DNA of 64,000 bases from Gammaproteobacteria bacterium (GTDB lineage: Bacteria > Pseudomonadota > Gammaproteobacteria > SZUA-140): positions 12,300 through 76,299 of the forward strand of contig WFNO01000122.1 of NCBI GenBank assembly GCA_015488555.1, written 5' to 3'. The notes under the pieces were generated by a model, which saw only the letters and a program-made list of their open reading frames with translations, made no database searches and was not told the DNA's origin. This document shows positions 22,663 through 41,334 of this stretch, piece by piece (position 1 is the stretch's first letter; each line of letters opens with the position of its first letter). The position numbers and the translations under genes were made by a program.

Positions 22663-23370
22663 TCAGGGTCGAGGTGAGACTTTTCCGTTTGGTGTCGCCT
22701 CGACCGCAGCCCTGAGTAGCAGAAAATCCAGCACCGCCATCATCTCACCCACATTGCGCACCATGCCAGGATCCACGCGATAGCGCCCCTCTACAATGAT
22801 GGTGGGCGCCCCTCGGATCCCGTAGCGTCGACTCATGATGCGGGCTTGGCGCACTTTGCGGGCGGTGAACGAACTGCGCATAGCGGTACGAAAGGCTTGG
22901 GGATCAACGCCCTGTTCAATGAGAAAATCGGCCAGGGCTTGCTCGTCGTCCAGGCGCCGATGTTGGCGGTGAATGGCGGTATAGAGGTCGTCGTGTATGT
23001 CATCCAGCACTCCCAGGGCCTGAGCTGCATAGAAAACCTGGGCAAAGAAAGTCATATCCTCGTTGGTGATAGCAGGCATACGCCGGTAATGGATGACTGC
23101 CTGATTGCGCTCCCGCCATCGCCGCAGTTGAGGCTGGATGGCCAAACAGGTGCGGCATCCGAACCAGAGCAATTCCACCACTTCCACGCGTTCTCCTCCG
23201 CGAGTGGGCTGAGGAGGGGTCACCAGCTGATAGTGCACCCCAGCCATAAAGCCACTTTGGGATCCACTGCGAAGATCGCCGGTCGCAGCGGCGCCCGTCT
23301 GCGACCACAGCAAGAGGAAGAAAGTCAGGAGCAGGAGGTTTCCGCCGGACGGGGTCAAACTTCCTTGCAT
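22663..23370 (-). CDS. DsbA-family periplasmic thiol:disulfide oxidoreductase (atypical CRTC active site)
   Basis: Signal peptide. WFGCRTC CxxC in a DsbA-like frame, ending ...YGIRGAPTIIVEGRYRV. GGAGG RBS. Confidence 0.7.
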   Translation of the reverse strand: MQGSLTPSGGNLLLLTFFLLLWSQTGAAATGDLRSGSQSGFMAGVHYQLVTPPQPTRGGERVEVVELLWFGCRTCLAIQPQLRRWRERNQAVIHYRRMPAITNEDMTFFAQVFYAAQALGVLDDIHDDLYTAIHRQHRRLDDEQALADFLIEQGVDPQAFRTAMRSSFTARKVRQARIMSRRYGIRGAPTIIVEGRYRVDPGMVRNVGEMMAVLDFLLLRAAVEATPNGKVSPRP

Positions 23371-23417
23371 GCCCCCCCTCCCCTGTCTCGTACCGTCACC
23401 ACAGCGGCCGGGGCAGT

Positions 23418-24131
23418 CTAGTGCAGTGATTGAACAGGCAGTTCCCGCTGGTCGGCAGCCGGAGCATCACGTGAGGGACTGTTACGCTCTTCCCAACGCT
23501 GTCCCTGTTCCGCCAGCCATTGTGCCTCTTCCGGTGGCCGCGGACCACGTTGTAGGCGATCCTCCCATTCCCATAGCGCGGCTCGAGCCCGCCGCACGTA
23601 GGGATCCCCGGGTGGTGCCAGATGGATGTAGGTGCGCATGGCCCCCAAGGCAGCCGGCAGATCGCCCTGGGCCTCGAACACCTCTGCCAGCCCCCAATAG
23701 GCATTACCCTTGTAAGGATCCAACTCGATGGCGTTGCGAAAAAAGGCTTCCGCCTCCTGGTAGCGCTGCAGGCCAAGCAATGCAAAGCCCATGTTGACAT
23801 GCGCATCGGTGAGCCGGGGCGAGAGGGCCAACACGCGGTGCAATGCAGTGGCGGCATATTCATAACGACCCGCGTGCAACATCATTACTGCCTGCTGAAA
23901 ACGCAGACGAATCTCGGCCATGCGCGGATCTTGGATCTCGTCGGCATCCATACCGCCTTCCAGCCTGCTCTCGGCGTTGACCTCCTGCCAGAGACCTTCG
24001 GGCATACGGCTGGACCACAAGGGGCTGTAATCCAACTTCATAGCCCCCGCAAGCATGCCAGTAGCCACGAGCATGACGGTCACCATGACCAAAGACAGGG
24101 CCGCCACGGTACGCTCGGGTAGCGCACTCAT
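23418..24131 (-). CDS. membrane-anchored TPR-repeat protein
   Basis: N-terminal TM, then TPR-like helices (AIELDPYKGNAYWGLAEVFEAQGDLPAAL). Its ATG overlaps the ccsA-like stop (ATGA). Confidence 0.7.
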   Translation of the reverse strand: MSALPERTVAALSLVMVTVMLVATGMLAGAMKLDYSPLWSSRMPEGLWQEVNAESRLEGGMDADEIQDPRMAEIRLRFQQAVMMLHAGRYEYAATALHRVLALSPRLTDAHVNMGFALLGLQRYQEAEAFFRNAIELDPYKGNAYWGLAEVFEAQGDLPAALGAMRTYIHLAPPGDPYVRRARAALWEWEDRLQRGPRPPEEAQWLAEQGQRWEERNSPSRDAPAADQRELPVQSLH

Positions 24132-25000
24132 CAGATCACCCCCTTGTGGGCTGCCTCACTGTAGAAAGGCGTGCCGAAATAAGTCAAAAAAGCAAAGACG
24201 AAGATGCCGATAATGGCCAACGCTCCCACGTGTATTGGAATGCGATAGCTGAGGCGGGCATGCAAGGCCGCCCCCAGGAACAACCAGTTGAGAAAGGATG
24301 AGGTCTCCAGTGCATCCCAGGCCCAGTAGCGGCCCCAGGCGTCCTGAGCCCATACGGCACCCGCGATGAGCATCAAACTGTCGAAGATAAGCGCCAACAA
24401 CATGAAACGCCAAGCCATATGGTCCAGCACCTTGTCCGGTGGCAAGTGACGGAAGAAAGGCGCCACCCTGGGAATACGCCTCAAGAGAATGACACCGGCC
24501 AACCCCGAGCCTATCAGGCAAAAGGCCAGAAAGAATTTGCCGAACCCCACGTGCGCCCAAAGCCATTCGTTGTAGTAGGTAGGGGGATAGTGACTGTCCG
24601 AAGGCTCCAAGAGTAACACCCAGGTGCCCAGCACCCAGAGCATGGGCAACACCACCACCGCCGTAGGACGCAGCACCGGCAGACGCCAGTAGGCGACAGC
24701 ATATATCAATCCCAGGCTGAACAACTGACTGATAAGCAATTCGAAGAGGTTGACGAAGGGTCCATGACCGAGGCGTAACCAGCGCTCTGCCAGGGACGCA
24801 GTAAGCAAGATCACCCCACCGGTAAGTAGGGCCAGGACCAAGGACTCGTGGCTGCGGTTCACGGCTGCCCCAGCATCCCCCCCGCGGGTGCGAACGAGGC
24901 CGTAGAAAGCAGACAAGGTCGCCAGTGCATAGGCCACCAGTCCCGTATAGAGCCAGGGAAGTTCAGTAAAAACCGTTGCTTCGCTCATTTCGTTCATCAT
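24131..25000 (-). CDS. System II cytochrome c biogenesis protein CcsA/ResC-like (haem-handling W-rich membrane protein)
   Basis: WAQDAWGRYWAWDALE tryptophan-rich motif, flanking His residues, multi-TM. The ORF's N-terminal extension is rejected. ATG at 25000 overlaps the ResB-like stop. Confidence 0.85.
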   Translation of the reverse strand: MMNEMSEATVFTELPWLYTGLVAYALATLSAFYGLVRTRGGDAGAAVNRSHESLVLALLTGGVILLTASLAERWLRLGHGPFVNLFELLISQLFSLGLIYAVAYWRLPVLRPTAVVVLPMLWVLGTWVLLLEPSDSHYPPTYYNEWLWAHVGFGKFFLAFCLIGSGLAGVILLRRIPRVAPFFRHLPPDKVLDHMAWRFMLLALIFDSLMLIAGAVWAQDAWGRYWAWDALETSSFLNWLFLGAALHARLSYRIPIHVGALAIIGIFVFAFLTYFGTPFYSEAAHKGVI

Positions 25001-26034
25001 AGCTTGCCTCCGCCCCATGGTGCCGTTTCCAGTTCCGGTTCCGCGCCCTTGCGTGAGACTTCCCCGGCCTGGGGCCAGGGATGAGTGGCAAACTTGTTCC
25101 AGAAATAGGCCGCCAAACCCAGCACCCCAATGACGGCCGTGAGGAACAGCCACTGGAGAGTGGGGTCGTAGAACAGTTTGTACCCCATCCAACTGCTCAA
25201 GCCCTCGTAACGCAGCACGCCACCTGGTAGAGCCGTTGCCTGCCCCGGTAGCAATTCCTCTCGCTGTTCTCCACTGCGTAACACCAATATTCCGTGTGCC
25301 TTGCTTGGATCCAGGGTCCAAGCTTGATCCGCCTTGAGACCGGTCTCCAATTGCAACCAGAACTTGACCTCCTCCCCACCGGGAGGAGTCCACCGATTGG
25401 CCTGGCGAAAGTCGAACAGGGGATAGGAAGGCATGTGGATGGTGCCGGTCACCGGCTCTCCAGTTTCCGGGATCCAGGTAAGCACCGCAGCAAAACCTTT
25501 ATTGAATGTGGTATAAAAACGATAGCCCTCCAGTACTAGAGGTGTGTCGTCCCCCACCACGCGTCGTTCCCATCCACCCTGACCGTCAGGCACCAGCACG
25601 TGACTACGGGTGGGTCCGCGCATCATGCCTGGTCCATAATCCACCGTGAAAGGCCCCTGCACGAAGACCACCTTCTCCAACTCGCCACGATGCCAGGGGC
25701 CTTTGCGCACGTTCATGAGTTCGGCCGGATCGAAAGTACTGCCTTCCACCATCTCGATATGCGCCTCCATGTGGGTGAGGCGACCAATGGCAGCCAATAT
25801 CACAATTCCCAACAAGGAAAGATGAAAGATCAAGAGTCCAGGACGGCGGTTGATCCGGGCATTGCTCATCACCGCCGCCAGCAGATTGACGGCCAGCAAG
25901 GCCATGGGAGCCACCAACGCCCAGACGGGGGTATCCACGGGATTGTCGTAGCTGAGGGCGGCCCCCACGGCCAGCAGGGCCATGCCCAGCAAGGTGAAAC
26001 GGGTGGAGGAAAGGCGCCTCAACAAAGCGGTCAT
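24997..26034 (-). CDS. ResB/CcsB-like cytochrome c biogenesis protein (short form)
   Basis: ResB-like N-terminus (LRRLSSTRFTLLGMALLAVGAALS), TM His (LIFHLSLLGIVIL), a periplasmic domain and a C-terminal TM. Lies immediately upstream of the ccsA-like gene. Confidence 0.7.
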   Translation of the reverse strand: MTALLRRLSSTRFTLLGMALLAVGAALSYDNPVDTPVWALVAPMALLAVNLLAAVMSNARINRRPGLLIFHLSLLGIVILAAIGRLTHMEAHIEMVEGSTFDPAELMNVRKGPWHRGELEKVVFVQGPFTVDYGPGMMRGPTRSHVLVPDGQGGWERRVVGDDTPLVLEGYRFYTTFNKGFAAVLTWIPETGEPVTGTIHMPSYPLFDFRQANRWTPPGGEEVKFWLQLETGLKADQAWTLDPSKAHGILVLRSGEQREELLPGQATALPGGVLRYEGLSSWMGYKLFYDPTLQWLFLTAVIGVLGLAAYFWNKFATHPWPQAGEVSRKGAEPELETAPWGGGKL

Positions 26035-28715
26035 GGTGGATTCACACAGGCTTCGGAACTACCCAACATCCAGGTGGCACCATTGAAACCATTGCCGGGT
26101 GCCCCAGCCGAACCGCAATTGGCCTGGGTCCATTCCCCGCTGCGGGCGAACTTGCGCACCTTGAGCACAGCACCGTTGTAATACGGACCATTGTAATAAC
26201 GCGCAGTGGTGTGATTGCGCACTTGCCGGCTGCTGGCATCCCCTGCTCCGGCTGGTTCACCAGCGAGCAGCGGCGCTTCCAACCCCACGTCGTTGAGATT
26301 GGCCAGGAACACTTTGTTCTTCCACCCATGGGGAATGGCGATGTGACAGAAGGTACAGCTGAAATCAGTCACCCTGCCGGCATGCCCCACGTGCAGATTG
26401 ATGTTCCTAAAATCAAGGCAGCCGACATTCACTCCAATGTTGGTGCTGAACCCGCTACTCAGCACAGAGGCATCAGGAAACGAGGCATCACCACGGCCAT
26501 ATTGATCGTATTCGTGGCATTTGAAACAGAGATGATTGAACGGTCCCGGGGGACGCGCCTCACCAGTCTTGTCGTCCCAGTCGCCCTTGAGCAAGAAGTT
26601 GTGGTCAGAACCGTGTGGCCCCCAGGGGTAACCGTTCTCGTCATTGGGCACCACTGTCTCCGGCGCGGTGGATGAGCCGTGACAGTCGGTACAATACATG
26701 GTCTGAGTACCCACCGCGACATTGAAGGGCGAAAGCCAGTCATCGGCATTCGCCTTGCGCACCTGGGGCGTGCGCCCGGTGGGTTTGACCACTGGATGCC
26801 AGGAGCGGTGATTGTCCGTCACCCAGTTCACACAATTGCCGTCCTTGTCCCGATAGGCCGGTACCGTACCGCCCGTCTCCACCGTGGAATCCGGCTCATT
26901 GGGATCGATGAGCATGGTACATTCGCCCACGCTGCCAGCGAAAGCTCCCGTCGGCGTAACAGGCGTGCCTTCTCCCATGTGGTCGTCGGGCGACTGGAAT
27001 TCCATGGCCTGGTTGGTGTACTGGAAGAGGGCGTTGGTACCTGGCGGCGTACCACCCACAAAGGAACCCAGCATGGGCGGTTGATCATAGGTGTAGTTGG
27101 AATGGCACTTGAAACAGAGTTGGTACTCGCGGGTGAGATAGGGTGCGCTGACATCGGTGCTGCCGCCCGTACCGGGATCGCCGCGTTTCACCTCGAAAGT
27201 CACCGGCTCGCTGCCGAATTCGGTGGAACCGTAGACAGGCTCCACGCCCCAGATGCCCCGCAATACCCCGGAAGCCAGATTGGTATGCGGCACGCCATCT
27301 TCGTGCAGATGGGTACCGGCGGGATCGGGCACGGTACTGTCCGCGTTGAACAGGCGGTTACGCGTCACCCGATGGGGATTGTGGCAATCGGTGCACTCGA
27401 CATGGCGATTGTTGAGATTGCCCTTACCCAAGTTCTCCGGCGCCTCGATGAAATCCTGCCCCCGCCGGTCTCCTTGGGTTGCCGTGCTGCCCGTACCGAT
27501 GCTGTGCACCTCGGTACCTGCGGGCTGATCCGAGCTGGCGATTGGCATTCGCCGCGCCATGGTGGTGAAATCGGTCTTAATGTCCGGCACCTCGAAAGAG
27601 AAATTAGTACTGGGATTGACCTGCCCCTGCAGTGTGTTGCCGTCGGCGGAATGGCAGGCATAACATACTTCTTCCACCGCTGGATTGCCGCCCTGTTTAT
27701 AGCGGGCGCCGTCCGCCGTGGTGAACACGGGGCCATCGGTACCCTCTCTGAGTAAGCGCCTTGCTCCCTGAACTGTGTGGGGATCGTGGCAGTTGAGACA
27801 AGCAGCCTGCCAAACGCGCAGATCACGGGGAAATTCGCGGAGATCGGCAGCGGCATCCGTATAACGTTCGTCGGCCACGGCGGGATGGGCGTGCGCCGAC
27901 CCCACCCAGCCGTCTTTATCGTGACAGGCCAGACAAATGATGTCGTTGTCACGATCGAAACGCCCATCCACCGGCTCTTGTTTCTGGAAGCGGTTGACGC
28001 GCAGGAACTTGATGTTCTCTCCGGGCACATCGGAACGCAGGTGCGGATCATGACATGTGATACATTCCACCTTGCCATCCTCCAAAGGCAGATAATCTCC
28101 CTGCGGAGCGGCCGGCGGGCTGCCACGGGTGCGCTCGTTGATGTGGGCCACCACTGCCGGATCGAACAATTCTCCATCCCGAGCCGCCTGACTGCTGTCA
28201 TAGGTAAAAGAAATAGGATGGTCGTTGCTCAGATCCACTCCCAGGCGACGCGTAAAGCCAGTGGTTTCCCCCAACCCTTCGGGAATGGTGCCATCGGCCT
28301 TGGTGCCGGTGAAGGGAATGTTGGGATTCTCGATACGATTGAGCACGTTGACCGCGCCCAGGGCAATGGTGCCGTCATGACAGGACAGGCACAGTTTGGA
28401 TTTTCCGCCTGGCTGCCCCAGATCCGTGGCATCCAGCGATGTAGAACTGAAGGGAATATAGGTGGCGGAAGACAGCTGGCGGTTCCACAGGGGTGCCGCC
28501 TGTTCCGGTGTGGCACCGTGGGGAGTGTGGCAAAAGGCACAGATCTGGGATTCACTGCTGGCGTGGGCCTGGCGTTCAACCCCTTGAGGAACGACGGTGG
28601 CGGAGAAATTGTGCTTGGTATTGCTGATGTCGGAGATGATGTCCGCCCAGACCACCCCAGGCCACGGCAACAACATCCACACTAAGCCCACCGCCAACAC
28701 CCACGGACGCTTCAT
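26031..28715 (-). CDS. secreted undecahaem c-type cytochrome (~895 aa) with an N-terminal doubled-CXXCH module
   Basis: Eleven CxxCH motifs counted (CAFCH, CLSCH, CITCH, CLACH, CLNCH, CYACH, CTDCH, CFKCH, CTDCH, CFKCH, CTFCH). Signal peptide MKRPWVLAVGLVWMLLPWPGVVWA. The N-terminus NTKHNFS...CAFCHTPHG...PLWN...CLSCHDGT is paralogous to the start of 37730..38566. Confidence 0.88.
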   Translation of the reverse strand: MKRPWVLAVGLVWMLLPWPGVVWADIISDISNTKHNFSATVVPQGVERQAHASSESQICAFCHTPHGATPEQAAPLWNRQLSSATYIPFSSTSLDATDLGQPGGKSKLCLSCHDGTIALGAVNVLNRIENPNIPFTGTKADGTIPEGLGETTGFTRRLGVDLSNDHPISFTYDSSQAARDGELFDPAVVAHINERTRGSPPAAPQGDYLPLEDGKVECITCHDPHLRSDVPGENIKFLRVNRFQKQEPVDGRFDRDNDIICLACHDKDGWVGSAHAHPAVADERYTDAAADLREFPRDLRVWQAACLNCHDPHTVQGARRLLREGTDGPVFTTADGARYKQGGNPAVEEVCYACHSADGNTLQGQVNPSTNFSFEVPDIKTDFTTMARRMPIASSDQPAGTEVHSIGTGSTATQGDRRGQDFIEAPENLGKGNLNNRHVECTDCHNPHRVTRNRLFNADSTVPDPAGTHLHEDGVPHTNLASGVLRGIWGVEPVYGSTEFGSEPVTFEVKRGDPGTGGSTDVSAPYLTREYQLCFKCHSNYTYDQPPMLGSFVGGTPPGTNALFQYTNQAMEFQSPDDHMGEGTPVTPTGAFAGSVGECTMLIDPNEPDSTVETGGTVPAYRDKDGNCVNWVTDNHRSWHPVVKPTGRTPQVRKANADDWLSPFNVAVGTQTMYCTDCHGSSTAPETVVPNDENGYPWGPHGSDHNFLLKGDWDDKTGEARPPGPFNHLCFKCHEYDQYGRGDASFPDASVLSSGFSTNIGVNVGCLDFRNINLHVGHAGRVTDFSCTFCHIAIPHGWKNKVFLANLNDVGLEAPLLAGEPAGAGDASSRQVRNHTTARYYNGPYYNGAVLKVRKFARSGEWTQANCGSAGAPGNGFNGATWMLGSSEACVNPP

Positions 28716-29794
28716 GATTCCCCCCAGTCCCTCAAGTACTCGAATATCATCACGCGACCGTTGAAGGCATCGGCCACATAGACCCACCCGCGGTGGTCGG
28801 TCCACACACCCGCAGGCAGATAAAACTGCCCAATGCCATTACCCGTCCCGCCGATCGGCAGCAGGAACTCCCCTTTCTCATTGAATATTAACAGATGATC
28901 GTAATAGGATTCCACCACGTACAGATTGCGGTCCTGATCAACGGCCACGCCCTTGGGACGCGGCAGATCGCCAAGATAGAGCCCGCGGCGACCTACACTA
29001 CGCACGAAACGCCCCTCACGATCGAAGACTTGCACCCGGGAATTGAGAGTGTCTGTCACATAGAGTCTTCCGTCGGCGAAGGTCAAGTAAGTAGGAGCAT
29101 TGAATTCTCCCGGCCCATGTCCTCGCCGCCCCCAAGTAGCCACCAAAACACCGTCCCGGTCGAAGACCTTCACGTCGTGGGCCTTGCTGTCCGCCACGTA
29201 GATGAGTCCACTCACCGGATCGCGGGCCACGCCCACGGGACGCTGCAGAACGCCTTCCCCCATGCTGCCCTGGGGCTTGCCCTGCTCGTTCAAGATCACC
29301 ACGCGCCGCAGGTCCGCGTCTGCGACAAGTATGTATCCCGGCTCACCCGCCGTCACACCCAAAGGCGTGAGAAAATGCAAATTTGCTCCGGCCTCCTCCC
29401 AGATCTGCAGACCGTCTTTCGGATCGAAGACGTATACCGCTGCTCGGCTCACATCACTGACATAGATCCGCCCACGCGCATCGGTATACCCCCCCTGCGG
29501 GCGCTGCAGGACACGCGGGCTATGCGGTCCTGTAGCCAAGCCCACCAGCCAAGCCAATACCTTGCGACCGACAGCGGTCCGTTGGCCACGGTAATTTTCC
29601 TCGCCGGTCAATTGTCCCATGTAGCGATAGCGAGGGCGCTCAGGTGGCGGTGGCCACACCGGCGGGGCATCGTCCAGCTCATCAAATCGCAAAGCAGAAC
29701 TGGGGCCGCCGGCACACCCTCCGGCCAATATCAGGACCACCACCATGAAACCGGCAGCCACACCCCGCGTCAGAGAGGCAAGACGGCAAGACAT
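28712..29794 (-). CDS. NHL-repeat six-bladed beta-propeller lipoprotein
   Basis: Lipobox LAGGC. Repeated blades of the form G-F-x-x-P-x-G-V-A-V-D-x-x-x-x-L/I-Y-V-x-D, with an NHL/N(S)R-V-Q-V-F motif recognisable in at least one blade. ATG overlaps the upstream stop (ATGA). Confidence 0.8.
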   Translation of the reverse strand: MSCRLASLTRGVAAGFMVVVLILAGGCAGGPSSALRFDELDDAPPVWPPPPERPRYRYMGQLTGEENYRGQRTAVGRKVLAWLVGLATGPHSPRVLQRPQGGYTDARGRIYVSDVSRAAVYVFDPKDGLQIWEEAGANLHFLTPLGVTAGEPGYILVADADLRRVVILNEQGKPQGSMGEGVLQRPVGVARDPVSGLIYVADSKAHDVKVFDRDGVLVATWGRRGHGPGEFNAPTYLTFADGRLYVTDTLNSRVQVFDREGRFVRSVGRRGLYLGDLPRPKGVAVDQDRNLYVVESYYDHLLIFNEKGEFLLPIGGTGNGIGQFYLPAGVWTDHRGWVYVADAFNGRVMIFEYLRDWGES

Positions 29795-30807
29795 CACTGC
29801 ACGCGTGGCGTTTCCGCCCGTTCTAGATTTTGGCGTGTAGCCTCTAGAACCTGGATGCGACCATTCATGGCATCGGCCACGTAGAGCAGGCCACCTTCCA
29901 GCCAAAGATCGGCAACGCGCTTGAACTGTCCGGGCGCAGTTCCGGAACGTCCCACAGAAAAACGGTAATGAGTGCCCTCGAAGACCCGGATGGTGTCGGT
30001 GAGATAATCGCCGACATAGGCCCAGCCGCGGGCATCCACGACGATGGAAGTGGGAAAAATCACCGTATCCTTCTCGAAAGACGCGAGAGGACCGCCGTCA
30101 GGCGCTATCACCTGAACCCGGGATTCTCCATAACGTGTGGCCACATAATAGCCTTCCGGCCCTAGGGCGAAGGCAGTGACGCCACGAAAACGCCCCGGGC
30201 CTTCTCCGCGCTCTCCGATGGCACCGCTGAGCAACCCCGCCCGGTTGTAGACCAGCACGTCGTCGTTGAAACCATCTGCGATGTACAAGGTACTGGTGGC
30301 CTCGTCCACCACCACGGCCACCGGCCGCCCCAGGTTGATGCGGTCCTCATAGACACGAATCAGGCGGTCGTCGCGGTCGAAATACAAGACCCGGCCACCG
30401 TCGAAATCGGCTAGATAATAGGAAAGATCGGAAGCCACGTAGATATCGGACACCGTACCGCTTACCAAGCGGCGCAAATCCTGAAGGATACGCAATTCTC
30501 CGCGGTCCCGACGATAGAGCAACACCTGTTCCAGGCCTTCGTCCACGATGTACACCGCAGGCCCGCGAGCAGCTACGGCCACGGGGCGGACGAGCCGCAC
30601 ATATTCCAATCCCGTGAGCAGATTACCGCCTCGCATTCCACCATCGATCACTTCCCATACCACAGGCTGTGTGCCAAGGGCACTTCCCGCGGCATCTCCG
30701 GAAGCGGGCACGGAACCCGGCTTCATAGCGCCGCAGCCGGCGGCAAACAGGAAAGCCGCTACGGCGATCAGCGCAACAATCTCGTTTCGTTGGGAACAGA
30801 ATGACAT
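29794..30807 (-). CDS. NHL-repeat beta-propeller lipoprotein (paralog)
   Basis: Lipobox LFAAGC. Blades YIADGFNDDVLVYN and LYVADAMNGRIQVL. Start 30807 overlaps the upstream cytochrome by about 40 nt, so it is somewhat uncertain. Confidence 0.72.
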   Translation of the reverse strand: MSFCSQRNEIVALIAVAAFLFAAGCGAMKPGSVPASGDAAGSALGTQPVVWEVIDGGMRGGNLLTGLEYVRLVRPVAVAARGPAVYIVDEGLEQVLLYRRDRGELRILQDLRRLVSGTVSDIYVASDLSYYLADFDGGRVLYFDRDDRLIRVYEDRINLGRPVAVVVDEATSTLYIADGFNDDVLVYNRAGLLSGAIGERGEGPGRFRGVTAFALGPEGYYVATRYGESRVQVIAPDGGPLASFEKDTVIFPTSIVVDARGWAYVGDYLTDTIRVFEGTHYRFSVGRSGTAPGQFKRVADLWLEGGLLYVADAMNGRIQVLEATRQNLERAETPRVQ

Positions 30808-34088: not shown

Positions 34089-34535
34089 TTATTTGTTGTC
34101 GGCGGTCTTCTTGGCAGGCAGGGGCTTGTAGGCCGGTGCTACCAGACGTTGTAGAGTGCTGCCATGGAAATGGGTAGGGGTACCCGGAATGCCCGAATGG
34201 CACATGGCACAGTTCTCCACCGACCAGGCCACCTCACCGTTGTGGCAGGCACCACAGAACTTGCCGTCGATGATCTTGGCCATGGTGATCTGATTGCCAC
34301 CAGCCTTGAATTTAAATCCGAGATCGGCATGACACACCTTACAGCGGAAACGGATGCGATGGAACCAATGAGGGAAAACCGCTGGGCGCATACCGGCGGC
34401 ATCGGAATAGTTGTTGATGACGACGTCTCCGTACTCGGCCTTCGAAGGTTGGGCCACCCCTGCGAACAATAAGACCGCGAAGGCTCCCAAAACGAACGGT
34501 TTCCATGCCCCCCTGTGCTTGATCTTCAGTGCCAT
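34089..34535 (-). CDS. small trihaem cytochrome c (cytochrome c3/c7-like)
   Basis: CKVCH, CGACH and CAMCH within 148 aa. FPHWFH...IDGKFCGACHNG pattern. GAGGAGAGG RBS at an internal ATG. Confidence 0.82.
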   Translation of the reverse strand: MALKIKHRGAWKPFVLGAFAVLLFAGVAQPSKAEYGDVVINNYSDAAGMRPAVFPHWFHRIRFRCKVCHADLGFKFKAGGNQITMAKIIDGKFCGACHNGEVAWSVENCAMCHSGIPGTPTHFHGSTLQRLVAPAYKPLPAKKTADNK

Positions 34536-34725: not shown

Positions 34726-36543
34726 TCAAAACAGGCGGTTCACCTGGAAATAGATCAGGCTGAAACTCTGGTCCTCTCCTCCTCCTCCGGTCAGATCGAA
34801 ATAGCGCCAGCTCATTCTCAACCGGGTCAAACCAATGGTGTAGTCCAGGCGGTTCTCCCATTCGAGACGATCCATGTTGCCCGACACGTCCGTGCGGGAG
34901 AGGCGCAGATCCGACAGGAAACGCAATCGCGGTACACCAAACACCGCACTGTGGGTGTAATTCAACTGCCCCGTTCCCGTTACTCTATCATTAACCCCCT
35001 GGCGGTTGAAGTCCTGGCTCACGTACTGGATGGTGAGATTACCTGTCAGATTGCTGAGCCGGTCGAGATAGCGGGTCCGCTGAATCTGGAAATTGACAAA
35101 CTGTTGATTGCCTTCCTGATCCCCGAAGGAACGGCCATCGGAGAGGGTCACTTGCAAAAAGCTGGTGGCCTCCGGGGAAGAAGCGTCCCAGGACAAACTG
35201 CCCGAATTGTCCAAGCGTTGCACCGAGGTCTCTACATCACCCATCTGTTCGTCACCGCTCACTGTCTGACTGAGGCTCAGGCGGATATTGGAACGCCGGC
35301 CGATCACCCACAGGCGCTGAATATCGTGCCCCAGTTTGAGCAGAAAGGATTGATCCTGGCGCTGTGGTGCGTCTCGCGCACTGGCCGTACCCTGGGTATA
35401 CCACTGATAGTTGAACCCAGACCAGAGAGGGCGAATGTCCGACTGATAGAGAGCGCCGGCGCGGCCCCTAGAAATGAAATCTGCACCGTCGCCGTTGTCA
35501 CTGCTGAGCACATCGACGTTGGCATCGAAACGCAGGTTGCGGGTGTACTGATAGAACATTCCACCAGTAGCGCTGAAATTGGTGAGTTCTACCTCGTTGC
35601 CCACCGTATCGGCCTGTAGCCCATAGAAGCGCACCCCTCCACTCAGGGTCAACGGCCGATCCAAGGGCCGCCAAAACACAAAGCTGGACAATTGCGTCAG
35701 ATCGGTGTCGCTGTCGGGTTGATTGGTACTATTGAGCGGCTGTTTCGATTCGTAATCGGAATTGTAGATGTTGAACATGGTATCCAGCCGCAAGGCACGG
35801 TTGGGAAAGTAGAAATGATCCACATTGAGAATGAAGGTATCGGTCTTCTGATCGATCACGGAGCGTTCGCTGCTCTGGATGCTGCTCTTGGCAATCAAGG
35901 TCTGCTTGGGCATTTTCAGATCCGCCTCCACACCGAACAGCTGGTCCCGGTAATTCTCTCCGCCCGGTTGCTGCTGCTCCCAATCGTTGCGGTCATAACG
36001 CAATTGGAAGCGGTGTCCCTTCTGAGTGTAGAAGGATTGCTTCAGCGATAGGCGACTGGTACGGAACTCGGTGCTGCCCAGGGTATTCAAGGGACTGGAG
36101 CGGGCCACCAGGTCCACCCGACTGTCGCTGGCCTGGTAGGTAAGCAGGAAAGGGGTGCGACTACGGGGCAGTATGCTCAGGTTGAGGTTACCCGTGAGGA
36201 TGGAAGACTCGTTGGAGCTACTTCCTTCGAACTCGGATTTGTCCCAAGTGAAGCGCAAACCGGTATCGGCAGTGGCCAGCCAGGGCCTGCCGAGATAACC
36301 TTTGAGATTGAGGCCCCCCTGTAACTGATTGCTGACGGTATCTTCCTGGCCGGTGTTGTCCAAGGCGCGAAAGGTATATCCGAGGTTGCCGGAAACATCG
36401 GTAAGGGCAAAGGCCCACGCGCACACGGACCAAGCCCACAGGCAGCAACCGCAAGCCAAGCGCAGCAACTCTACCCCCGCTTCCGAACCTCGAAATCGCT
36501 GACCATTGCCCCCGGCACAGACCCGCGGGCTGCTCCATCTCAT
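34726..36543 (-). CDS. large outer-membrane beta-barrel protein (~600 aa, MtrB/PioB-like size class), no haem motif
   Basis: Signal peptide ...AWAFA. Alternating amphipathic beta-strand pattern throughout. C-terminal ...YFQVNRLF with a terminal Phe, typical of OMPs. Confidence 0.7.
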   Translation of the reverse strand: MRWSSPRVCAGGNGQRFRGSEAGVELLRLACGCCLWAWSVCAWAFALTDVSGNLGYTFRALDNTGQEDTVSNQLQGGLNLKGYLGRPWLATADTGLRFTWDKSEFEGSSSNESSILTGNLNLSILPRSRTPFLLTYQASDSRVDLVARSSPLNTLGSTEFRTSRLSLKQSFYTQKGHRFQLRYDRNDWEQQQPGGENYRDQLFGVEADLKMPKQTLIAKSSIQSSERSVIDQKTDTFILNVDHFYFPNRALRLDTMFNIYNSDYESKQPLNSTNQPDSDTDLTQLSSFVFWRPLDRPLTLSGGVRFYGLQADTVGNEVELTNFSATGGMFYQYTRNLRFDANVDVLSSDNGDGADFISRGRAGALYQSDIRPLWSGFNYQWYTQGTASARDAPQRQDQSFLLKLGHDIQRLWVIGRRSNIRLSLSQTVSGDEQMGDVETSVQRLDNSGSLSWDASSPEATSFLQVTLSDGRSFGDQEGNQQFVNFQIQRTRYLDRLSNLTGNLTIQYVSQDFNRQGVNDRVTGTGQLNYTHSAVFGVPRLRFLSDLRLSRTDVSGNMDRLEWENRLDYTIGLTRLRMSWRYFDLTGGGGEDQSFSLIYFQVNRLF

Positions 36544-36558: not shown

Positions 36559-37623
36559 TTATTCGGCCCCGACTAGCAGAGCTTCATTGATCGTTATCGG
36601 TGTTTTCCTGCGCAATTCCTCCAGCAGGCTTTGCCAAGCCTGTGCCTTGCGCTCCTCACTCAGCATCAGGCGAGCCCTGGCCTCACTGCGTGCGAAATCG
36701 TTGAGTTGTGGTGGCGTGCGTGCCTCCAACCGAAACAAGGCATATCCCTGCAAGAGACGAATGGGGGCCGACACCTCTCCCGGAGCCAGCCCATCTACCA
36801 CCTCTTGAGCCTCGGTAGACAACATGCCGGCATGGACATAGCCCAGATCTCCTCCCCGAGCCGCCGACTCGTCAGAGGAATGCGCGCGTGCCAGCTCAGC
36901 GAACGAAGCCCCTTCCGCAAGTCGCGCCAATAGCTCCTCCGCCTTCTGCCGGGCCGCTTCCCATTCCTGCGGTGGCGCCCAAGGCGGTACACGCAACAGG
37001 ATCAACGACAGATGCAGGCGTTGGGGAGTGGTGAACCGTTCGGGATGGGCTTCGTAATAGGCACGCACGGCCGCCCGATCAGGCTCCGGCAAGTCTTCCA
37101 CCTCGTCTTTCAAACGCTGGATGCGACTTTGGGCTTCCAGTTCCTCCCGCAAAGCCTGCAGCAACTCTTCGCGCCGCTCCTCCCAGTGAGGCAAGCGGCG
37201 GTAACGCTCCTGTACCATTTCCAACTGCGCCTTCACCCAACCTCCGTCGGGTTCGATGCCCCGGCGTTGTGCCTCTTGCAGGAGCAGGCGTCGATCGACG
37301 AGGCGCTCGGCTACTTCGCGGCGAAAAGCCAGACGCTGGTCCTCCGGCACTTTGCCGTGATAGAAGCGCTGCCGATAGGCCGCATGCACATTGACCCGGA
37401 ATTCTTCGGCGCTGATGATCTCCTCCCCTACGGTGGCCAGAATCCCGTCGCCGTCAAGAGCGGCCTGGGGTGCGGCTCCCTCGGCGGGCACCACCCACAG
37501 CAAAGTGCCAAGCCAGCATCCGACCACCACCGACCACACCCATCGTCCGGTTCGGCCCCTCCAACGGTCCAGACGGCCCCAGGATACTCGGGCCGCCCAC
37601 GGGAGTTGCAGCCCCCCATTCAT
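36559..37623 (-). CDS. SurA/PpiD-like periplasmic chaperone with PpiC (parvulin) PPIase domain
   Basis: GGDLGYVHAGMLSTEAQEVVDGLAPGEVSAPIRLLQGYALFRLE parvulin core. Strong AGGAGG RBS at the internal ATG 37623. Confidence 0.8.
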   Translation of the reverse strand: MNGGLQLPWAARVSWGRLDRWRGRTGRWVWSVVVGCWLGTLLWVVPAEGAAPQAALDGDGILATVGEEIISAEEFRVNVHAAYRQRFYHGKVPEDQRLAFRREVAERLVDRRLLLQEAQRRGIEPDGGWVKAQLEMVQERYRRLPHWEERREELLQALREELEAQSRIQRLKDEVEDLPEPDRAAVRAYYEAHPERFTTPQRLHLSLILLRVPPWAPPQEWEAARQKAEELLARLAEGASFAELARAHSSDESAARGGDLGYVHAGMLSTEAQEVVDGLAPGEVSAPIRLLQGYALFRLEARTPPQLNDFARSEARARLMLSEERKAQAWQSLLEELRRKTPITINEALLVGAE

Positions 37624-37729
37624 GTCTGTCCTCCTCTTCGCACATCCCACCGCCCACAGCAGTCCCTTCTGCTCAGATCCGATTCAGATCCGCCCCGTAA
37701 CCGCTCCAGTATCAGTCCCGGATCTGCGC

Positions 37730-38566
37730 TCACTTGTTGTGGCAGGTCAGGCACACTGCACTACCACTGGGATCGATGCGAAGGAAAGTGGGATTGTAGT
37801 CCACGTGTGGATCGTGACAGGAGGCACATTCCACGTAGGGCTGCGGCTCACCGGCAAAAGCCCCTTTGGTCCCCACCCGGGTATAAAGTTTCATGTCAGT
37901 ACGCTCGAAGTCTGAGGTACTACCTTCTACCTGGGTGTTGACCCACCATATCCGGCGTGTGCCGACAATCTTGGTCTCGGCTGGATTGAAATCCTTGTCG
38001 CGGCCCGGTCCCTGGGGATTGGATTCGGAATAGCCCCCGCCTGCATACTGCACGCTGATGGGATGGTCATCGGTAAGATCCTTGCCCAGATTGGTGATCA
38101 CCGTCACTGGCCCGATGCGGCCGTTCACTGCGGCGGCCTGGCCACTCCACACGCCGCTGGAAAAGGCATAATTGTCTGCGCCAGAACCCGGTTCGTTGAT
38201 CATGGCATCCATGGCTTGGGTGCCATCGTGACAGGAGAGACAAGCGATGGACACCGAACCGATAGGCTCGATCTGGGCATCCAGGGTGGTACTCCCGCCC
38301 TGGTCGTAGGTCTGGAATCCCGTAGGATCCAGGTAGCGGTTCCATAGCGGCACCGCCGCCGAGGCATCTCCTCCATGGGGGGTATGGCAGAATACACAGA
38401 TCTCAGTGGTACCGCTGAAATTACTGGCGGCATTGACGCCCATGCTGCCGAGATTGTGTTTGGTGTTGGCAATCCCCGCTCGCACCTCCTGAGCAACCCC
38501 TGACAGCATGAGTGCCAAGATGAAGGCCAAGGCCGTCATCCACGTTGGCCTGGCGGCTGGCCGCAT
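37730..38566 (-). CDS. tetrahaem c-type cytochrome with doubled-CXXCH module (paralog of the N-terminus of the 11-haem protein)
   Basis: CVFCHTPHG, CLSCHDG, CASCHDPH and CLTCHNK. NTKHNLG...PLWN motif. Signal peptide MRPAARPTWMTALAFILALMLSGVAQEVRA. Confidence 0.8.
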   Translation of the reverse strand: MRPAARPTWMTALAFILALMLSGVAQEVRAGIANTKHNLGSMGVNAASNFSGTTEICVFCHTPHGGDASAAVPLWNRYLDPTGFQTYDQGGSTTLDAQIEPIGSVSIACLSCHDGTQAMDAMINEPGSGADNYAFSSGVWSGQAAAVNGRIGPVTVITNLGKDLTDDHPISVQYAGGGYSESNPQGPGRDKDFNPAETKIVGTRRIWWVNTQVEGSTSDFERTDMKLYTRVGTKGAFAGEPQPYVECASCHDPHVDYNPTFLRIDPSGSAVCLTCHNK

Positions 38567-38948
38567 CCATAGTGCTTCACCGACAAGTGAAAACGATCCG
38601 CACGACCACTGGGGCCAGAACCTTCCCGCTACCGCCGCGCTCCTCCCCATACTCACTCTGGAAACCCTCCCCGAATATCCAGTGTTGGGTGATGTCGTCC
38701 CGCACGGACAGGGCATCATTATACCCACATCAGGCTGCCGCATGAGCCATTGGTTGATCTCTCCCGACAACCCTACCGGCCGCCCATTCCCTGTCATCGT
38801 TGCAGTGAATCTAGTTATACACTCTACCACAAGCGCCGTAGCACGGAAAAACGCATCGCGCACAGGGATTTCCTTCAGCGTACCGCCAATACCATCGCAA
38901 CCATCGTGCTCCTCCTGCACGCGGGTGCTGCACGAGCGGTGCTGCGCG

Positions 38949-40103
38949 TCAGATGCCGCGCTCGAATCGGAAACGCAGGCCCAGAGACAACAGGCGCAGG
39001 TCTTCACCGGCGGCGGGCAGCAAGGGAGCGGGATCGTCGGCATCGGCCACCAGGCCGTAGGCCGCCCCTTTTTCGTTGCGCACCGCCACATAGCGGGCAT
39101 ACCAGGCCAGGCGGGGTGAGAGGGCATGATCGAAGCCCAGGGCGCCGAATACCGCGCCGCTGTCGGGCAGGCCGTCCAGGGCCTCCAGGTAGGCCCCGGC
39201 CAGGCGCCAGGTCACATTGCCCAGGACCTGATCGAGGGCCAGGTGATAGGCGCGGCGGCCCACCGTCCGGCCGCTCAGGCGGGCGCCGTTGGTGGCCTCT
39301 TCCAAGAACAGGTCCAGGCGTGTGCCCTGGCCGAAATCCCAGCCCAGGACCAGCTTGCGCGCGGCGGCATTGCGATGGTCCGCCGCGGCGAATACCGCCA
39401 GGTTGGATTCGTAGCGCTGGAGTCGCTCGTAGGCCAGGGCCAGATACAAAGGCCCCCGATCCAGGATCAAGGCGGCGCTCGAAGCCCGGCGATCCGGCCC
39501 GTAGGCAGGCGTGGCGGCCAGGAGCAGCTGGACACCCTTGAGACGCGGCGTCTCGTAGCTCACCAGATGCGGCAGGCGGTTACCGAAGACGGGCTCGCCG
39601 TTCAGATTGCCCATCACCGCGTGGATGTCCGCCCGGGTGTCGGCGAACCCATCCAGGCGGTCACCGGCGCGGCGATAGGGCGTGGCCTGGCGCCCCACCC
39701 GCAAGGTGCCCAGCCGATGGCGCAGGCCTGCATAGGCCTCGCGCCCGCTGCTCCAGCCGCCCTCATCCAGATCCAGGTAGACCTCGGCACGCCACAGCAG
39801 ATCCAGATGCTCGCGCACGCCTTCGCGCCCGCGAAAGCCCAGCCAGGACCGATTGCCGTTCACCGCCAGCGGCTCGTCCTCGTCGGGTCCGGGATAATCC
39901 CGGGTATTCAGGCCGTCCAGAGATACCAAGGCCTGGCCGTAGAGTGCCATTTCCGCAGCCCGGCCGGCCAGCGGCACGCTCAAGACACAGGCGGCCAGTA
40001 CCCATCCCAGCACCCATCCGAACAGCACCCGCCAGCCCATTCGGGGGCGTTCTCCGCCGGGCATGCGCGGGCGGAAACCGTACTCAACTCGACACCACTC
40101 CAT
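38949..40103 (-). CDS. outer-membrane porin-like beta-barrel protein
   Basis: AAGGAG RBS, signal peptide, alternating beta-pattern, ends LRFRFERGI. Family assignment (general porin versus phosphate-selective porin O/P) is uncertain. Confidence 0.55.
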   Translation of the reverse strand: MEWCRVEYGFRPRMPGGERPRMGWRVLFGWVLGWVLAACVLSVPLAGRAAEMALYGQALVSLDGLNTRDYPGPDEDEPLAVNGNRSWLGFRGREGVREHLDLLWRAEVYLDLDEGGWSSGREAYAGLRHRLGTLRVGRQATPYRRAGDRLDGFADTRADIHAVMGNLNGEPVFGNRLPHLVSYETPRLKGVQLLLAATPAYGPDRRASSAALILDRGPLYLALAYERLQRYESNLAVFAAADHRNAAARKLVLGWDFGQGTRLDLFLEEATNGARLSGRTVGRRAYHLALDQVLGNVTWRLAGAYLEALDGLPDSGAVFGALGFDHALSPRLAWYARYVAVRNEKGAAYGLVADADDPAPLLPAAGEDLRLLSLGLRFRFERGI

Positions 40104-40374
40104 CCAGCACTCCTTTTTTCACCTCGACCACCCCGTGGCCATCGTCCCTCGCCCTCCGGTCAATACCGTCTGGCACTCCAATCCCCCTGGCCGAGCGCCA
40201 GGTGGAAGACGAATTCATCGGGAGGACGGATTCTAGAAGCCCGCAATGTACCTTGAGTGCGCGCGCAAGGCAAAACGCATAAAAAAGCCGGGCCCGAAGG
40301 CCCGGCATATGTTCAGGGCTGGATACCCGAGGTCTCTGGAATAAAACCCGGAATCAAAACCCGGGAATCGGGCC

Positions 40375-41334
40375 TCAGGGCAGCTCGGTGATGAACTGCG
40401 CCAGGAACTGCGTGCCATCCAGGCCGCCACCACCATCGGCATCACGATCCTTGTACTCCAGAGCGATTTGCAGATTGCTGCCGGCCTGCCAGGCGCCATA
40501 CAAGGTGATCGTGCTGGGCTCCACACCGCCATCGTAGGACTCGGCCTCGTAACGGCCGCGCACGACCACACCGTTGCCGAAATCATAGCCACCCCAGATG
40601 TTCCAGACGGCATCCACGATCTCGGCCGCCGCCAGGTAGTCGAAGCCCACTTCACCGCCACCGCCGAGGTTGGTCCAGGTACCGTTGATGTCCCAGACGT
40701 TGCCGGCACCCCCTAAAAGCGGATTGTCGTTGTCCTGGGTCACGTAACCAAACTCCAGATCCAGGTCCTGCATGGGCGTGACGTTGAGCACCACGGCCAG
40801 GGAGTTCTCCTCGGCCACACCGCCGATGTCGTTCAGGTAGGCCACGGTGCCGGTGACCATACCGGAACTGCCGGACAGCGCCACACCCGCCAGGTTGTTG
40901 CCATAGAGCGCGGTCTGATCATCGAGGATCTCGAATACCATGGAATGGGTGATGAAGCGGATCTCGTTGACGTCCTCTTCCTCGGCGCTCATGGGGTTGT
41001 TGAACACGCCGCCGATGAGGCTGAGCTGTTCCGTGAGCCCCCAGGAGAAGAAGGCCTGCTCAATACGGGCCGAATCACCACCCAGGGCATCATTGACACC
41101 GTCCAAGGCCAGATTCACATCCAGGTCGAGACGCGCCGTCACGCCATCGGCGGGGCTGGCGATGAAGTCCACTTCCCCGTTGGCCGAGAAGGACTTTTCG
41201 CTTGTAGGGGCCTCGTCGTCGGTCACGGTGTAGAGAATCTCGGCGAAGCCGTCCACCTTCACATCGTCCGCCTGCGCAGCCAGGGGCGCGGCAAAGGCGC
41301 CGGCGACGGCCAGTGCGATCAGTCTTTTTTTCAT
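40375..41334 (-). CDS. acidic Asp/Gly-rich outer-membrane porin-like protein
   Basis: GGGAGAG RBS. Signal peptide MKKRLIALAVAGAFAAPLAAQA. Amphipathic strands and numerous D/G-rich loops. Confidence 0.55.
   Translation of the reverse strand: MKKRLIALAVAGAFAAPLAAQADDVKVDGFAEILYTVTDDEAPTSEKSFSANGEVDFIASPADGVTARLDLDVNLALDGVNDALGGDSARIEQAFFSWGLTEQLSLIGGVFNNPMSAEEEDVNEIRFITHSMVFEILDDQTALYGNNLAGVALSGSSGMVTGTVAYLNDIGGVAEENSLAVVLNVTPMQDLDLEFGYVTQDNDNPLLGGAGNVWDINGTWTNLGGGGEVGFDYLAAAEIVDAVWNIWGGYDFGNGVVVRGRYEAESYDGGVEPSTITLYGAWQAGSNLQIALEYKDRDADGGGGLDGTQFLAQFITELP

Follow-up and report, generated by a model that had tools for sequence, protein, structure and literature searches.

Positions 22663-41334 of the window analysed here (64,000 nucleotides of contig WFNO01000122.1, from a gammaproteobacterium) carry 16 genes on the minus strand, as counted from the list of open reading frames (ORFs) and family searches. 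We regard it as near certain that this region is a uet ('undecahaem electron transfer') cluster, made up of uetABCDEFGHIJ, a System II cytochrome c maturation pair, a gene for an NrfG-like TPR protein and dsbA. By sequence comparison, the tetrahaem cytochrome UetA is a clear homologue of the cytochrome filament subunit OmcE, and the undecahaem cytochrome UetJ is a paralogue of this putative filament subunit, fused to a long haem-bearing extension. We hold with moderate confidence that the products would form an electron chain consisting of extracellular OmcE-family cytochromes, an outer-membrane barrel, and periplasmic trihaem cytochromes with a cupredoxin, served by dedicated folding and haem-attachment factors.

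The uet architecture has already been named and published, and the window contains a further well-preserved copy of it with minor additions, namely dsbA, a LuxR-type regulator gene and neighbouring porin genes. All of the products listed in a previous sequence-only reading of this DNA are indeed encoded on the minus strand of this region. However, that reading counted 17 genes, and it did not recognise the architecture as a described system, whereas the cluster matches the published uet cluster gene for gene.

The uet gene cluster and its conservation

Families were assigned using Pfam, NCBIfam (with the cut-offs of its TIGRxxxxx and NFxxxxxx models), PDB sequences and counts of CXXCH motifs. 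For several genes, the longest forms in the ORF list overshoot the true starts. The genes of the cluster are given below in the direction of transcription.

37730-38566, minus strand: uetA, OmcE-family tetrahaem cytochrome, 278 amino acids from 38566 (269 by the gene caller), 4 CXXCH
36559-37623, minus strand: uetB, SurA-like parvulin peptidyl-prolyl isomerase (Rotamase E=1.5e-18, SurA_N_3 E=8e-8)
34726-36543, minus strand: uetC, putative outer-membrane beta-barrel of an orphan family, 605 amino acids, with a signal peptide and barrel-like composition
34089-34535, minus strand: uetD, periplasmic c7-type trihaem cytochrome (TIGR04257 66.7 bits, cut-off 40; Cytochrome_C7 E=1.5e-15)
33399-34064, minus strand: uetE, c7-type trihaem cytochrome with an N-terminal extension (TIGR04257 63.4 bits)
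31549-33279, minus strand: uetF, 576-amino-acid lipoprotein (lipobox LVSC) with an Ala/Pro/Glu-rich linker, a predicted type-1 copper cupredoxin domain (about residues 165-290) and a helical C-terminal half
30768-31415, minus strand: uetG, c7-type trihaem cytochrome, 215 amino acids including the signal peptide (TIGR04257 65.9 bits)
29794-30807, minus strand: uetH, NHL beta-propeller lipoprotein (NHL, DUF5128; lipobox FAAGC)
28712-29794, minus strand: uetI, NHL beta-propeller lipoprotein (NHL E=5e-21, DUF5128 E=9e-25)
26031-28715, minus strand: uetJ, undecahaem cytochrome with 11 CXXCH, an OmcE-like tetrahaem module (about residues 25-270) and a 7-haem extension
24997-26034, minus strand: short ResB/CcsB-like System II cytochrome c maturation protein (ResB, PF05140, E=6.9e-13); overlaps uetJ and ccsA by 4 nucleotides each
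24131-25000, minus strand: CcsA-type haem-handling membrane protein of System II (Cytochrom_C_asm, PF01578, E=1.3e-23; TIGR03144 102.5 bits, under the cut-off of 187.6)
23418-24131, minus strand: NrfG-like TPR protein (TPR_2, TPR_19, TPR_16), at the nrfG position of the published uet cluster
22663-23370, minus strand: DsbA-like thiol:disulfide oxidoreductase (DSBA, PF01323, E=1.5e-14), in the same place after the TPR gene in the related loci L091 and L093

The cluster uetABCDEFGHIJ was defined in 'Candidatus Tenderia electrophaga' and Tenderiales by Eddie et al. 2022 (bioRxiv 10.1101/2022.05.06.490989; mSphere e00223-22). In that work UetA is a tetrahaem cytochrome, UetB a peptidyl-prolyl isomerase, UetC a beta-barrel outer-membrane protein, UetD, UetE and UetG c7 trihaem cytochromes, UetF a cupredoxin, UetH and UetI NHL repeat proteins and UetJ an undecahaem cytochrome; ccsA, ccsB, the TPR gene (NrfG) and BatD/BatB/BatA are also conserved parts of the module, which was tied to alternative complex III (ACIII). 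Later work reported uet in Gallionella and used it as a marker in a Gallionellaceae pangenome (PMC9900912), and a 2025 review cites it (PMC12575090).

The window has the same ten products, A to J, in identical order. Directly 3' of uetJ follow ccsA/ccsB (System II) and the NrfG-like TPR gene, with overlaps of 1-4 nucleotides; the Bat operon adjoins, and ACIII lies in the genome neighbourhood. In contrast to the T. electrophaga cluster, in which DsbA is not listed, the window has dsbA and a LuxR-type regulator gene inserted between the TPR gene and BatD, and two porin genes and a tRNA-Gln gene ahead of uetA. This comparison was made through genome loci of 'Candidatus Tenderia sp.' (L017 and L025), which served as proxies for T. 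electrophaga ALP54622-ALP54633. The window is colinear with both loci, at 34-83% amino-acid identity per gene. Because the orthologues are only this similar, the host of the window belongs to a lineage different from Tenderia sp. The loci most closely related to the window are titled 'Gammaproteobacteria bacterium', 'Chromatiales bacterium' and 'Candidatus Tenderia sp.' at NCBI, and the host is an uncultured Chromatiales/Tenderiales-like gammaproteobacterium.

To describe the conservation of the cluster, a pattern scan was run over one genome per species, and the best 80 loci were kept from at least 600 matches. At least 583 matches encode a UetA relative (583 of 600 among the matches listed, all in species-representative genomes). 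According to tblastn with the window proteins, the order uetA-B-C-D-E-F-G is present in 52 of the best 80 loci. Among the 59 of these that extend for at least 9 kb downstream, A-B-C-D-E-F-G is kept in 49, and A, D, E, F and G are kept in 54. One locus, L091, repeats the entire layout, rplM-rpsI-porin-porin-uetA..J-resB-ccsA-TPR-dsbA-regulator. Since the same gene order recurs in dozens of genomes, the cluster is not a chance assembly.

The carriers among the best 80 loci include Chromatiales and Tenderia-like genomes (67-87% UetA identity), Thioalkalispiraceae, Thiobacillus, Gallionella, Rhodocyclaceae and many Burkholderiales (46-57% UetA identity). Cultured carriers are Ideonella sp. A 288, Noviherbaspirillum sp. 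ST 5-3 (complete genome), Ramlibacter alkalitolerans KACC 19305 and Ramlibacter sp. AN1133 (loci L042, L057, L067 and L076); the first three can be named for genetic tests. Partial uet-like clusters were seen in Aestuariirhabdus sp. LZHN29 and Motiliproteus sediminis HS6 (L069 and L072). Together with more than 7,000 UetA-like protein clusters and 585 representatives of the UetC family (E<=1e-3; 1.84 billion proteins searched), these counts indicate that the module is widely spread.

It could be argued that the genes are unrelated periplasmic respiratory parts, from nitrite, hydroxylamine or sulfur metabolism, that are merely adjacent, and weak sub-threshold matches of NrfB/NrfE type (NF008659 at E=0.006 for UetA, and an nrfE-type match for CcsA) would agree with such an origin. 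However, the gene order is kept across Gamma- and Betaproteobacteria, the overlaps between uetG and the TPR gene suggest translational coupling, and the best structural relatives are OmcE filaments. Assignment to a nitrite, hydroxylamine or sulfur pathway was rejected, as family searches detected no catalytic subunit of such enzymes in the cluster. We therefore consider this explanation extremely improbable and close to refuted. It was the sequence-only reading that had named such scattered, unrelated components as what would speak against its proposal.

OmcE homology of UetA and UetJ, and the propeller lipoproteins

UetA is about 269-278 amino acids long, as opposed to 465 in the longest ORF, and its match to Paired_CXXCH_1 (E=3.5e-11) and four CXXCH motifs agree with the previous description of a 4-haem, doubled-CXXCH cytochrome. 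When UetA was compared with all PDB sequences, 9yuq_N (E=1.7e-25) and 7tfs_A (E=2.4e-23) were matched, and there was no credible match beyond these two. The second entry, which is 98% identical to a protein that NCBI assigns to G. sulfurreducens subsp. ethanolicus, is one that we take to be the OmcE filament of Geobacter sulfurreducens. UetA is 29% identical to OmcE (GSU0618) over 270 amino acids. The first entry, 9YUQ, is the OmcE filament bundle of Desulfuromonas soudanensis (Petersen et al. 2025, bioRxiv 10.1101/2025.10.22.684050).

The ligands of the haems were conserved as well. UetA holds exactly eight histidines, four in CXXCH motifs and four distal, and H37, H61, H64, H113, H168, H251, H254 and H276 are invariant among 17 homologues with 51-76% identity. 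A normal subunit has eight histidines for its four haems (Petersen et al. 2025), and in OmcE one haem takes its histidine ligand from the adjacent subunit (PMC9473688). Because the eight histidines of UetA leave none to spare, as in OmcE with its histidine from the neighbouring subunit, UetA probably polymerises.

UetJ, which with its 11 CXXCH motifs is the 11-haem cytochrome of the sequence-only reading, matches 7tfs_A at E=4.6e-18. Its first ~270 residues align with UetA and OmcE, including an N-terminal NTKH motif, four CXXCH and three other distal histidines, and the ligand residues of this module are at least 95% conserved in 39 orthologues and the window protein. The remaining ~600 residues contain seven further CXXCH and a stretch that resembles domains II/IV of MtrC/MtrF (PF22113, 43.3 bits, cut-off 30). 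The alignment of its head with the putative filament subunit suggests that UetJ could sit at one end of a UetA polymer, as its base or its tip.

A third link to OmcE is provided by the propeller lipoproteins. In the omcE cluster of Geobacter the propeller lipoprotein is GSU0617, to which UetI is 33% identical over 320 amino acids (E=1e-53) and UetH 25% identical (E=1e-12). The NHL and DUF5128 matches of UetH and UetI, with lipoboxes visible in both, bear out their earlier description as two NHL propeller lipoproteins. According to Petersen et al. 2025, a likely nanowire cluster is recognised by genes for three products together, namely an OmcE homologue, a large barrel and a propeller lipoprotein, and such clusters occur in Pseudomonadota; neither Tenderia nor Uet is named there. 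Among the papers searched, we found none that joins Uet with OmcE.

The uet cluster and the omcE nanowire cluster (Wang et al. 2022; Petersen et al. 2025; GSU0612-0619, PDB 7TFS; PDB 9YUQ in D. soudanensis) are thus alike in several respects. Like the omcE cluster, uet has an OmcE-family tetrahaem cytochrome with all eight haem-ligating histidines, a homologous NHL propeller lipoprotein and a large unannotated, putative outer-membrane protein, the 605-amino-acid product of uetC, which lies two genes from uetA. In both, resB/ccsB, a c7 trihaem cytochrome (PpcA in Geobacter) and further multihaem cytochromes are found nearby. The G. sulfurreducens locus among our loci (L084) contains ppcA-resB-ccsB, 9-haem and 8-haem cytochromes, GSU0617, omcE and a 752-amino-acid unannotated protein. 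The CcsA of the window matches CcsB (GSU0614) at E=1e-17, and the trihaem cytochromes show weak similarity to PpcA. The two clusters also differ. The barrels are not detectably homologous (605 amino acids in uet, ~750 in Geobacter), and uet adds a parvulin, a cupredoxin lipoprotein, three extended trihaem cytochromes and an undecahaem cytochrome with its own OmcE-like module, whereas Geobacter has 8- and 9-haem cytochromes and a glycosylation island. Furthermore, the hosts of uet would oxidise rather than reduce extracellular substrates.

The osc (OmcS companion) operon of G. sulfurreducens offers a parallel in logic. In the account of it given within PMC13194489, after Shen et al. 2025, the filament subunit is co-encoded with a folding factor (OscH), secretion factors (OscE, OscF and OscG) and periplasmic cytochromes. 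The subunit described there belongs to another family, as it is the hexahaem OmcS.

The proposed electron path and its probable direction

The path across the outer membrane would involve UetC. Neither Pfam, NCBIfam nor the PDB contained a relative of UetC, and the best PDB match of the family profile was OprC (E=0.11). The mature part of UetC has no hydrophobic helix and is polar and free of cysteine, a C-terminal Phe is present in 41 of 60 orthologues, and weak matches to OMP_b-brl were seen in 9 of 50 family members and to BBP2 likewise in a minority. These features are consistent with an outer-membrane barrel, although they are not proof of one. A 28-strand barrel was predicted for the Tenderia protein (Eddie et al. 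2022). The AlphaFold model of the window protein, computed from a 4-sequence alignment only, had a predicted local distance difference test (pLDDT) score of 27.9. The signal peptide, the absence of a helix and the terminal Phe accord with the ~600-residue barrel that the sequence-only reading proposed.

We considered whether UetC is homologous to GSU0619, the barrel protein encoded in the omcE cluster of Geobacter, and rejected this, as blastp returned nothing and hhalign gave a probability of 2.5% (60 UetC orthologues against four Geobacter-type barrels). Similarly, BLAST and hidden Markov model searches with the Geobacter barrels found no link to 150 representatives of the UetC family.

The cluster had previously been likened to Mtr/Mto/Pcc conduits. 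This is an analogy and no more: uet shares with MtrCAB, MtoAB, PioAB and Pcc the general design of a barrel with multihaem cytochromes on both sides. The UetJ sub-domain that resembles MtrC domains II/IV is the only specific likeness, and the nearest relatives of solved structure are OmcE filaments. Membership in the Mtr/Pcc systems was rejected: the MtrA/DmsE model TIGR03508 scored 41.8 bits for UetJ and 28.5 bits for UetA, compared to a cut-off of 192.2, and MtrB_PioB matched neither UetC nor 50 members of its family at E<=1.

These results bear on the model of Eddie et al. 2022, in which uet is a classical porin-cytochrome conduit and no filament is involved. Monomeric UetJ, UetA or both would be threaded into UetC like MtrA into MtrB and hand electrons to the trihaem cytochromes. 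The published model has a 28-strand UetC, a rod-shaped UetJ and haems <1 nm apart, and the MtrC/MtrF-like stretch of UetJ, its weak similarity to the DmsE family and the lack of a detectable relation between UetC and the Geobacter barrel are in keeping with it. In contrast, OmcE, the protein to which UetA and the head of UetJ are homologous, is known solely in the form of an extracellular polymer, UetA has no spare histidine, the propeller lipoprotein shared as UetI and GSU0617 points to an OmcE-type assembly, and the MtrA/DmsE and MtrB/PioB families are those to which the uet proteins failed to match. We consider the conduit possible but doubtful.

In the periplasm, carriers of two kinds are predicted. 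UetD, UetE and UetG each have three CXXCH motifs and score 63-67 bits with TIGR04257, well above its cut-off, in accord with the three trihaem cytochromes noted previously. The public call of UetG (183 amino acids, start MAATPAK) cuts off the signal peptide, whereas the 215-amino-acid ORF from 31415 keeps it; orthologues were called at 198-218 amino acids. The exact UetE protein occurs on 11 public contigs.

UetF carries the copper site. Its low-complexity linker is followed by a domain of ~120 residues and a helical C-terminal half of ~280 residues. The motif H-x45-C-x2-H-x2-M is invariant in 30 orthologues, HDFY...C-x2-H-x2-M-G is kept, and H55, C101, H104 and M107 (alignment A2 numbering) are invariant in an 18-sequence alignment. 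A search with a chimeric UetF+UetC protein gave 14 proteins, 11 of them UetF and 3 UetC, and the AlphaFold model of the UetF domain, from the 11-homologue alignment, reached a pLDDT of 91.8. Foldseek comparison of this model with the PDB ranked rusticyanin at the top (E=1.3e-4), along with CueO and other multicopper oxidases, plastocyanin and nitrosocyanin (probability 1.0, TM-score ~0.5). The comparison of the copper-domain profile with PDB sequences was set aside, because its top matches were tobacco etch virus (TEV)-site or tag artefacts and pseudoazurin was reached only at E=0.26; Foldseek settled the fold instead.

The model and the invariant residues support a cupredoxin fold with a type-1 ligand set for UetF, in line with the amicyanin-like copper lipoprotein of the sequence-only reading, and copper binding is predicted. 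In Acidithiobacillus, rusticyanin serves as the blue copper protein of the chain that oxidises iron. Its rank as the top match of the model is suggestive, although the scores are too near those of other cupredoxins to mean anything beyond the shared fold. UetF residues ~165-290 share their fold, the His/Cys/His/Met type-1 set and the C-x2-H-x2-M spacing with the single-domain cupredoxins rusticyanin, amicyanin, plastocyanin and pseudoazurin. Unlike these, the UetF domain sits inside a 576-residue lipoprotein, its TM-score to them is ~0.5 at 15-17% identity, and it matches only Pfam PF25489 ('At5g54830-like', in 18 of 18 members) and no classical copper-binding family.

The observed gene content and order, homologies, conserved ligands, cupredoxin fold and conservation across genomes suggest the following path, whose basis is homology, conserved ligands, predicted localisation signals and conserved synteny; the location of the proteins, the polymerisation of UetA, the order of carriers and the direction of flow are inferred. 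A haem chain would cross the outer membrane and reach the outside of the cell, where electrons would be exchanged with solid or non-permeant redox partners. UetA, as a polymerising tetrahaem cytochrome, and UetJ would be located outside the cell, and UetJ may join the UetA chain to the cell or to the substrate. The UetC barrel would provide passage through the outer membrane or anchorage in it. The PpcA-like c7 trihaem cytochromes UetD, UetE and UetG and the membrane-anchored blue-copper protein UetF would then carry electrons across the periplasm to inner-membrane complexes; ACIII is encoded 17 kb away, and oxidases elsewhere. UetB, UetH, UetI and the ResB, CcsA, TPR and DsbA proteins would assist in folding, assembly and the attachment of haem.

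Electrons probably flow inward, in the oxidation of Fe(II), minerals or a cathode, given the lifestyle of the closest carriers and the expression seen in T. electrophaga. When this organism lives on cathodes, its trihaem genes rank with the most strongly expressed, and expression of the undecahaem gene is also high (PMC5371394; Eddie et al. 2022). The extracellular electron-transfer role that the sequence-only reading proposed, with Fe(II), minerals or other partners, is the same as that in the literature, and the domains, homologies and synteny are compatible with it, although like the present reading it derives from sequence.

The direction cannot be read from the genes themselves, and outward transfer may apply especially to the Burkholderiales carriers. 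If uet ran outward, it would serve dissimilatory reduction of extracellular Fe(III), Mn(IV), humics or anodes, like OmcE in Geobacter, a protein implicated both in the reduction of Fe(III) oxides and in direct transfer of electrons between species (PMC12307469). In principle, a haem wire can run either way, and we found no report that links the Burkholderiales and marine gammaproteobacterial carriers (Ideonella, Ramlibacter, Noviherbaspirillum, Motiliproteus and Aestuariirhabdus) to lithoautotrophy. However, the closest relatives, which are Tenderia-like, Chromatiales, Thioalkalispiraceae, Thiobacillus and Gallionella, belong to lineages that oxidise inorganic donors, and T. electrophaga expresses uet genes on a cathode with O2 (PMC5371394). 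In addition, a type-1 copper protein suggests a high-potential path, from general knowledge of cupredoxins, and the genes of ACIII, a complex that has been proposed to serve reverse electron flow in these organisms, lie nearby. We consider the outward direction unlikely.

More tentatively, inward flow and OmcE homology can be combined in one model. In it, uet may be an OmcE-type filament system that lithoautotrophs run in reverse, with UetA as the polymer and UetJ as an adaptor whose conserved OmcE-like module, including the histidine of its NTKH motif, would dock on one end of a UetA filament by the same kind of bond from a histidine to a neighbouring haem. With its seven extra haems, UetJ may then be either a base that links the filament to UetC or a tip that links it to the substrate. 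A tip, stopper or base protein was sought by Petersen et al. 2025, who stated that none is encoded in the Geobacter and Desulfuromonas omcE operons. If the adaptor model is true, UetJ would be a protein of this kind.

Several points weigh against the proposed chain and its filament. We infer polymerisation from the histidine count of UetA, which has insertions relative to OmcE, and OmcE-like tetrahaem proteins are widespread and need not all form filaments (Petersen et al. 2025); what cytochrome filaments do physiologically is itself in dispute (PMC11077965). The barrel fold of UetC is not confirmed, given its low-scoring model, and UetC has no detectable relation to GSU0619. Neither a parvulin nor a cupredoxin is encoded in the omcE cluster of Geobacter, and the machinery of the two systems is therefore only partly shared. 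The functional assignment draws on genomics and on gene expression in a single enrichment, the uet proteins being known from their genes alone. Many carriers are Burkholderiales (Ideonella, Ramlibacter and Noviherbaspirillum) for which we found no report of lithoautotrophy, and neither RuBisCO nor a terminal oxidase was found within the 64-kb window.

Even so, uet is the leading candidate for electron uptake from cathodes or minerals by T. electrophaga, an aerobic electroautotroph, and by related sediment and groundwater bacteria. The OmcE homology of UetA and of the UetJ head, together with the match between UetI and GSU0617, turns the gene list into a testable structural model, that of a putative filament with its adaptor.

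Gene spacing, porin genes and surroundings of the cluster

The genes had been described as tightly packed and often overlapping. This holds for uetG through the TPR gene, to which overlaps are confined (-40 to -1 nucleotides); elsewhere the gaps are 15-190 nucleotides, and the porin genes are set off by gaps of 271 and 409 nucleotides. The features upstream of uetA are as follows.

40375-41334, minus strand: porin-like outer-membrane protein, 319 amino acids, acidic and Gly-rich, with signal peptide MKKRLIALAVAGAFAAPLAAQA
40287-40306, minus strand: strong terminator-like GC hairpin with a T-run, 3' of the porin-like gene above (stem of 8 G-C pairs, 4-nucleotide loop, TTTTTT; a consensus match only)
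38949-40103, minus strand: Porin_4-family porin, ORF of 384 amino acids (PF13609 E=6.3e-19), 409 nucleotides from uetA

The first of these proteins has no match of its own in Pfam or NCBIfam. The label 'porin-like' is based on its signal peptide, its composition and a weak Porin_4 match on record for the 365-amino-acid gene at the same position in L091; homologues are found upstream of uetA in the closest clade. Thus, of the two porin-like barrels reported previously, the second belongs to a porin family and the first has no family match, and both probably lie outside the operon. In a scan for promoters and terminators, counts were no higher than in shuffled sequence, and the hairpin after the first porin gene was the sole item of note. 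Of the best 80 loci, 29 have porin genes ahead of uetA; these are essentially the loci of the closest clade, and the others have none there. Because of the gaps, the terminator-like hairpin and this limited presence, the porin genes are neighbours rather than core uet genes and probably share no transcript with the other genes; the gene at 40375-41334 is probably a transcription unit of its own.

A tRNA-Gln(CTG) gene (41635-41708, minus strand) separates rpsI from the first porin gene. L091 and L092 likewise have the order rplM-rpsI-porin(s)-uetA, whereas in L093 trpGDC-OmpA-AI-2E transporter genes lie directly 5' of uetA. Therefore, the uet cluster occupies different chromosomal sites in related genomes.

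Variants of the cluster were also seen. Loci of a Burkholderiales/Thioalkalispiraceae type (L040-L082) have an extra NHL propeller gene just 5' of uetA and a fourth c7 trihaem gene after uetG, and in several of them the opposite strand carries a second, divergent UetA-like gene accompanied by a further NHL gene. In the distant uet cluster of L092 (17320-21716), uetJ is followed by a 756-amino-acid lactonase-type propeller and a large multihaem cytochrome (>883 amino acids) rather than by resB/ccsA.

The ResB-like, CcsA-like, TPR and DsbA-like products at the 3' end of the cluster were all as the sequence-only reading described them. Both of the further loci inspected for it, L091 and L093, have the same short (~343-amino-acid) form of ResB. 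As Eddie et al. 2022 note, it is unusual for Gammaproteobacteria to have System II. The window also encodes a full System I (ccmABCDEFGHI, 6926-14124, minus strand), within 20 kb of the uet-linked System II pair at 24131-26034 on the same strand. Downstream of dsbA, the following genes were found.

21694-22437, minus strand: LuxR/GerE-type response regulator, 3' of dsbA; a Response_reg + GerE gene also follows dsbA in L091
14438-21647, plus strand: MoxR-DUF58-DUF4381-BatA-BatB-BatD operon (VWA and BatD matches), convergent with uet and corresponding to the batABD part of the published module
14438-15394, plus strand: MoxR
15547-16464, plus strand: DUF58 protein
16487-17023, plus strand: DUF4381 protein
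17036-18049, plus strand: BatA
18046-19881, plus strand: BatB
19875-21647, plus strand: BatD

The MoxR and Bat gene calls were mapped to the window from contig JALUNY010000319.1 of the metagenome-assembled genome GCA_027018575.1, which has identical proteins and gene order. The G+C content is 0.715-0.731 at 16000-20000, over the DUF4381, BatA and BatB genes, compared to ~0.59-0.60 for uet; it climbs again, to 0.68, at 52-56 kb over the trp genes.

The ACIII genes (58193-64000, minus strand), 17 kb from uet, encode a molybdopterin-like ActB that is cut by the window end, an Fe-S subunit, the NrfD-like ActC, ActD and a cytochrome c, and the same run includes a further 348-amino-acid membrane protein. 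Genes for ribulose-phosphate 3-epimerase (rpe) and a HAD phosphatase are located at 55540-56948. At the other end of the window (336-5789, minus strand), a HAMP-PAS-GGDEF-EAL protein and two Reg_prop ('two-component regulator propeller') proteins are encoded beside a monohaem cytochrome c and a thioredoxin, and these genes may form a cyclic di-GMP regulatory unit near the haem maturation genes.

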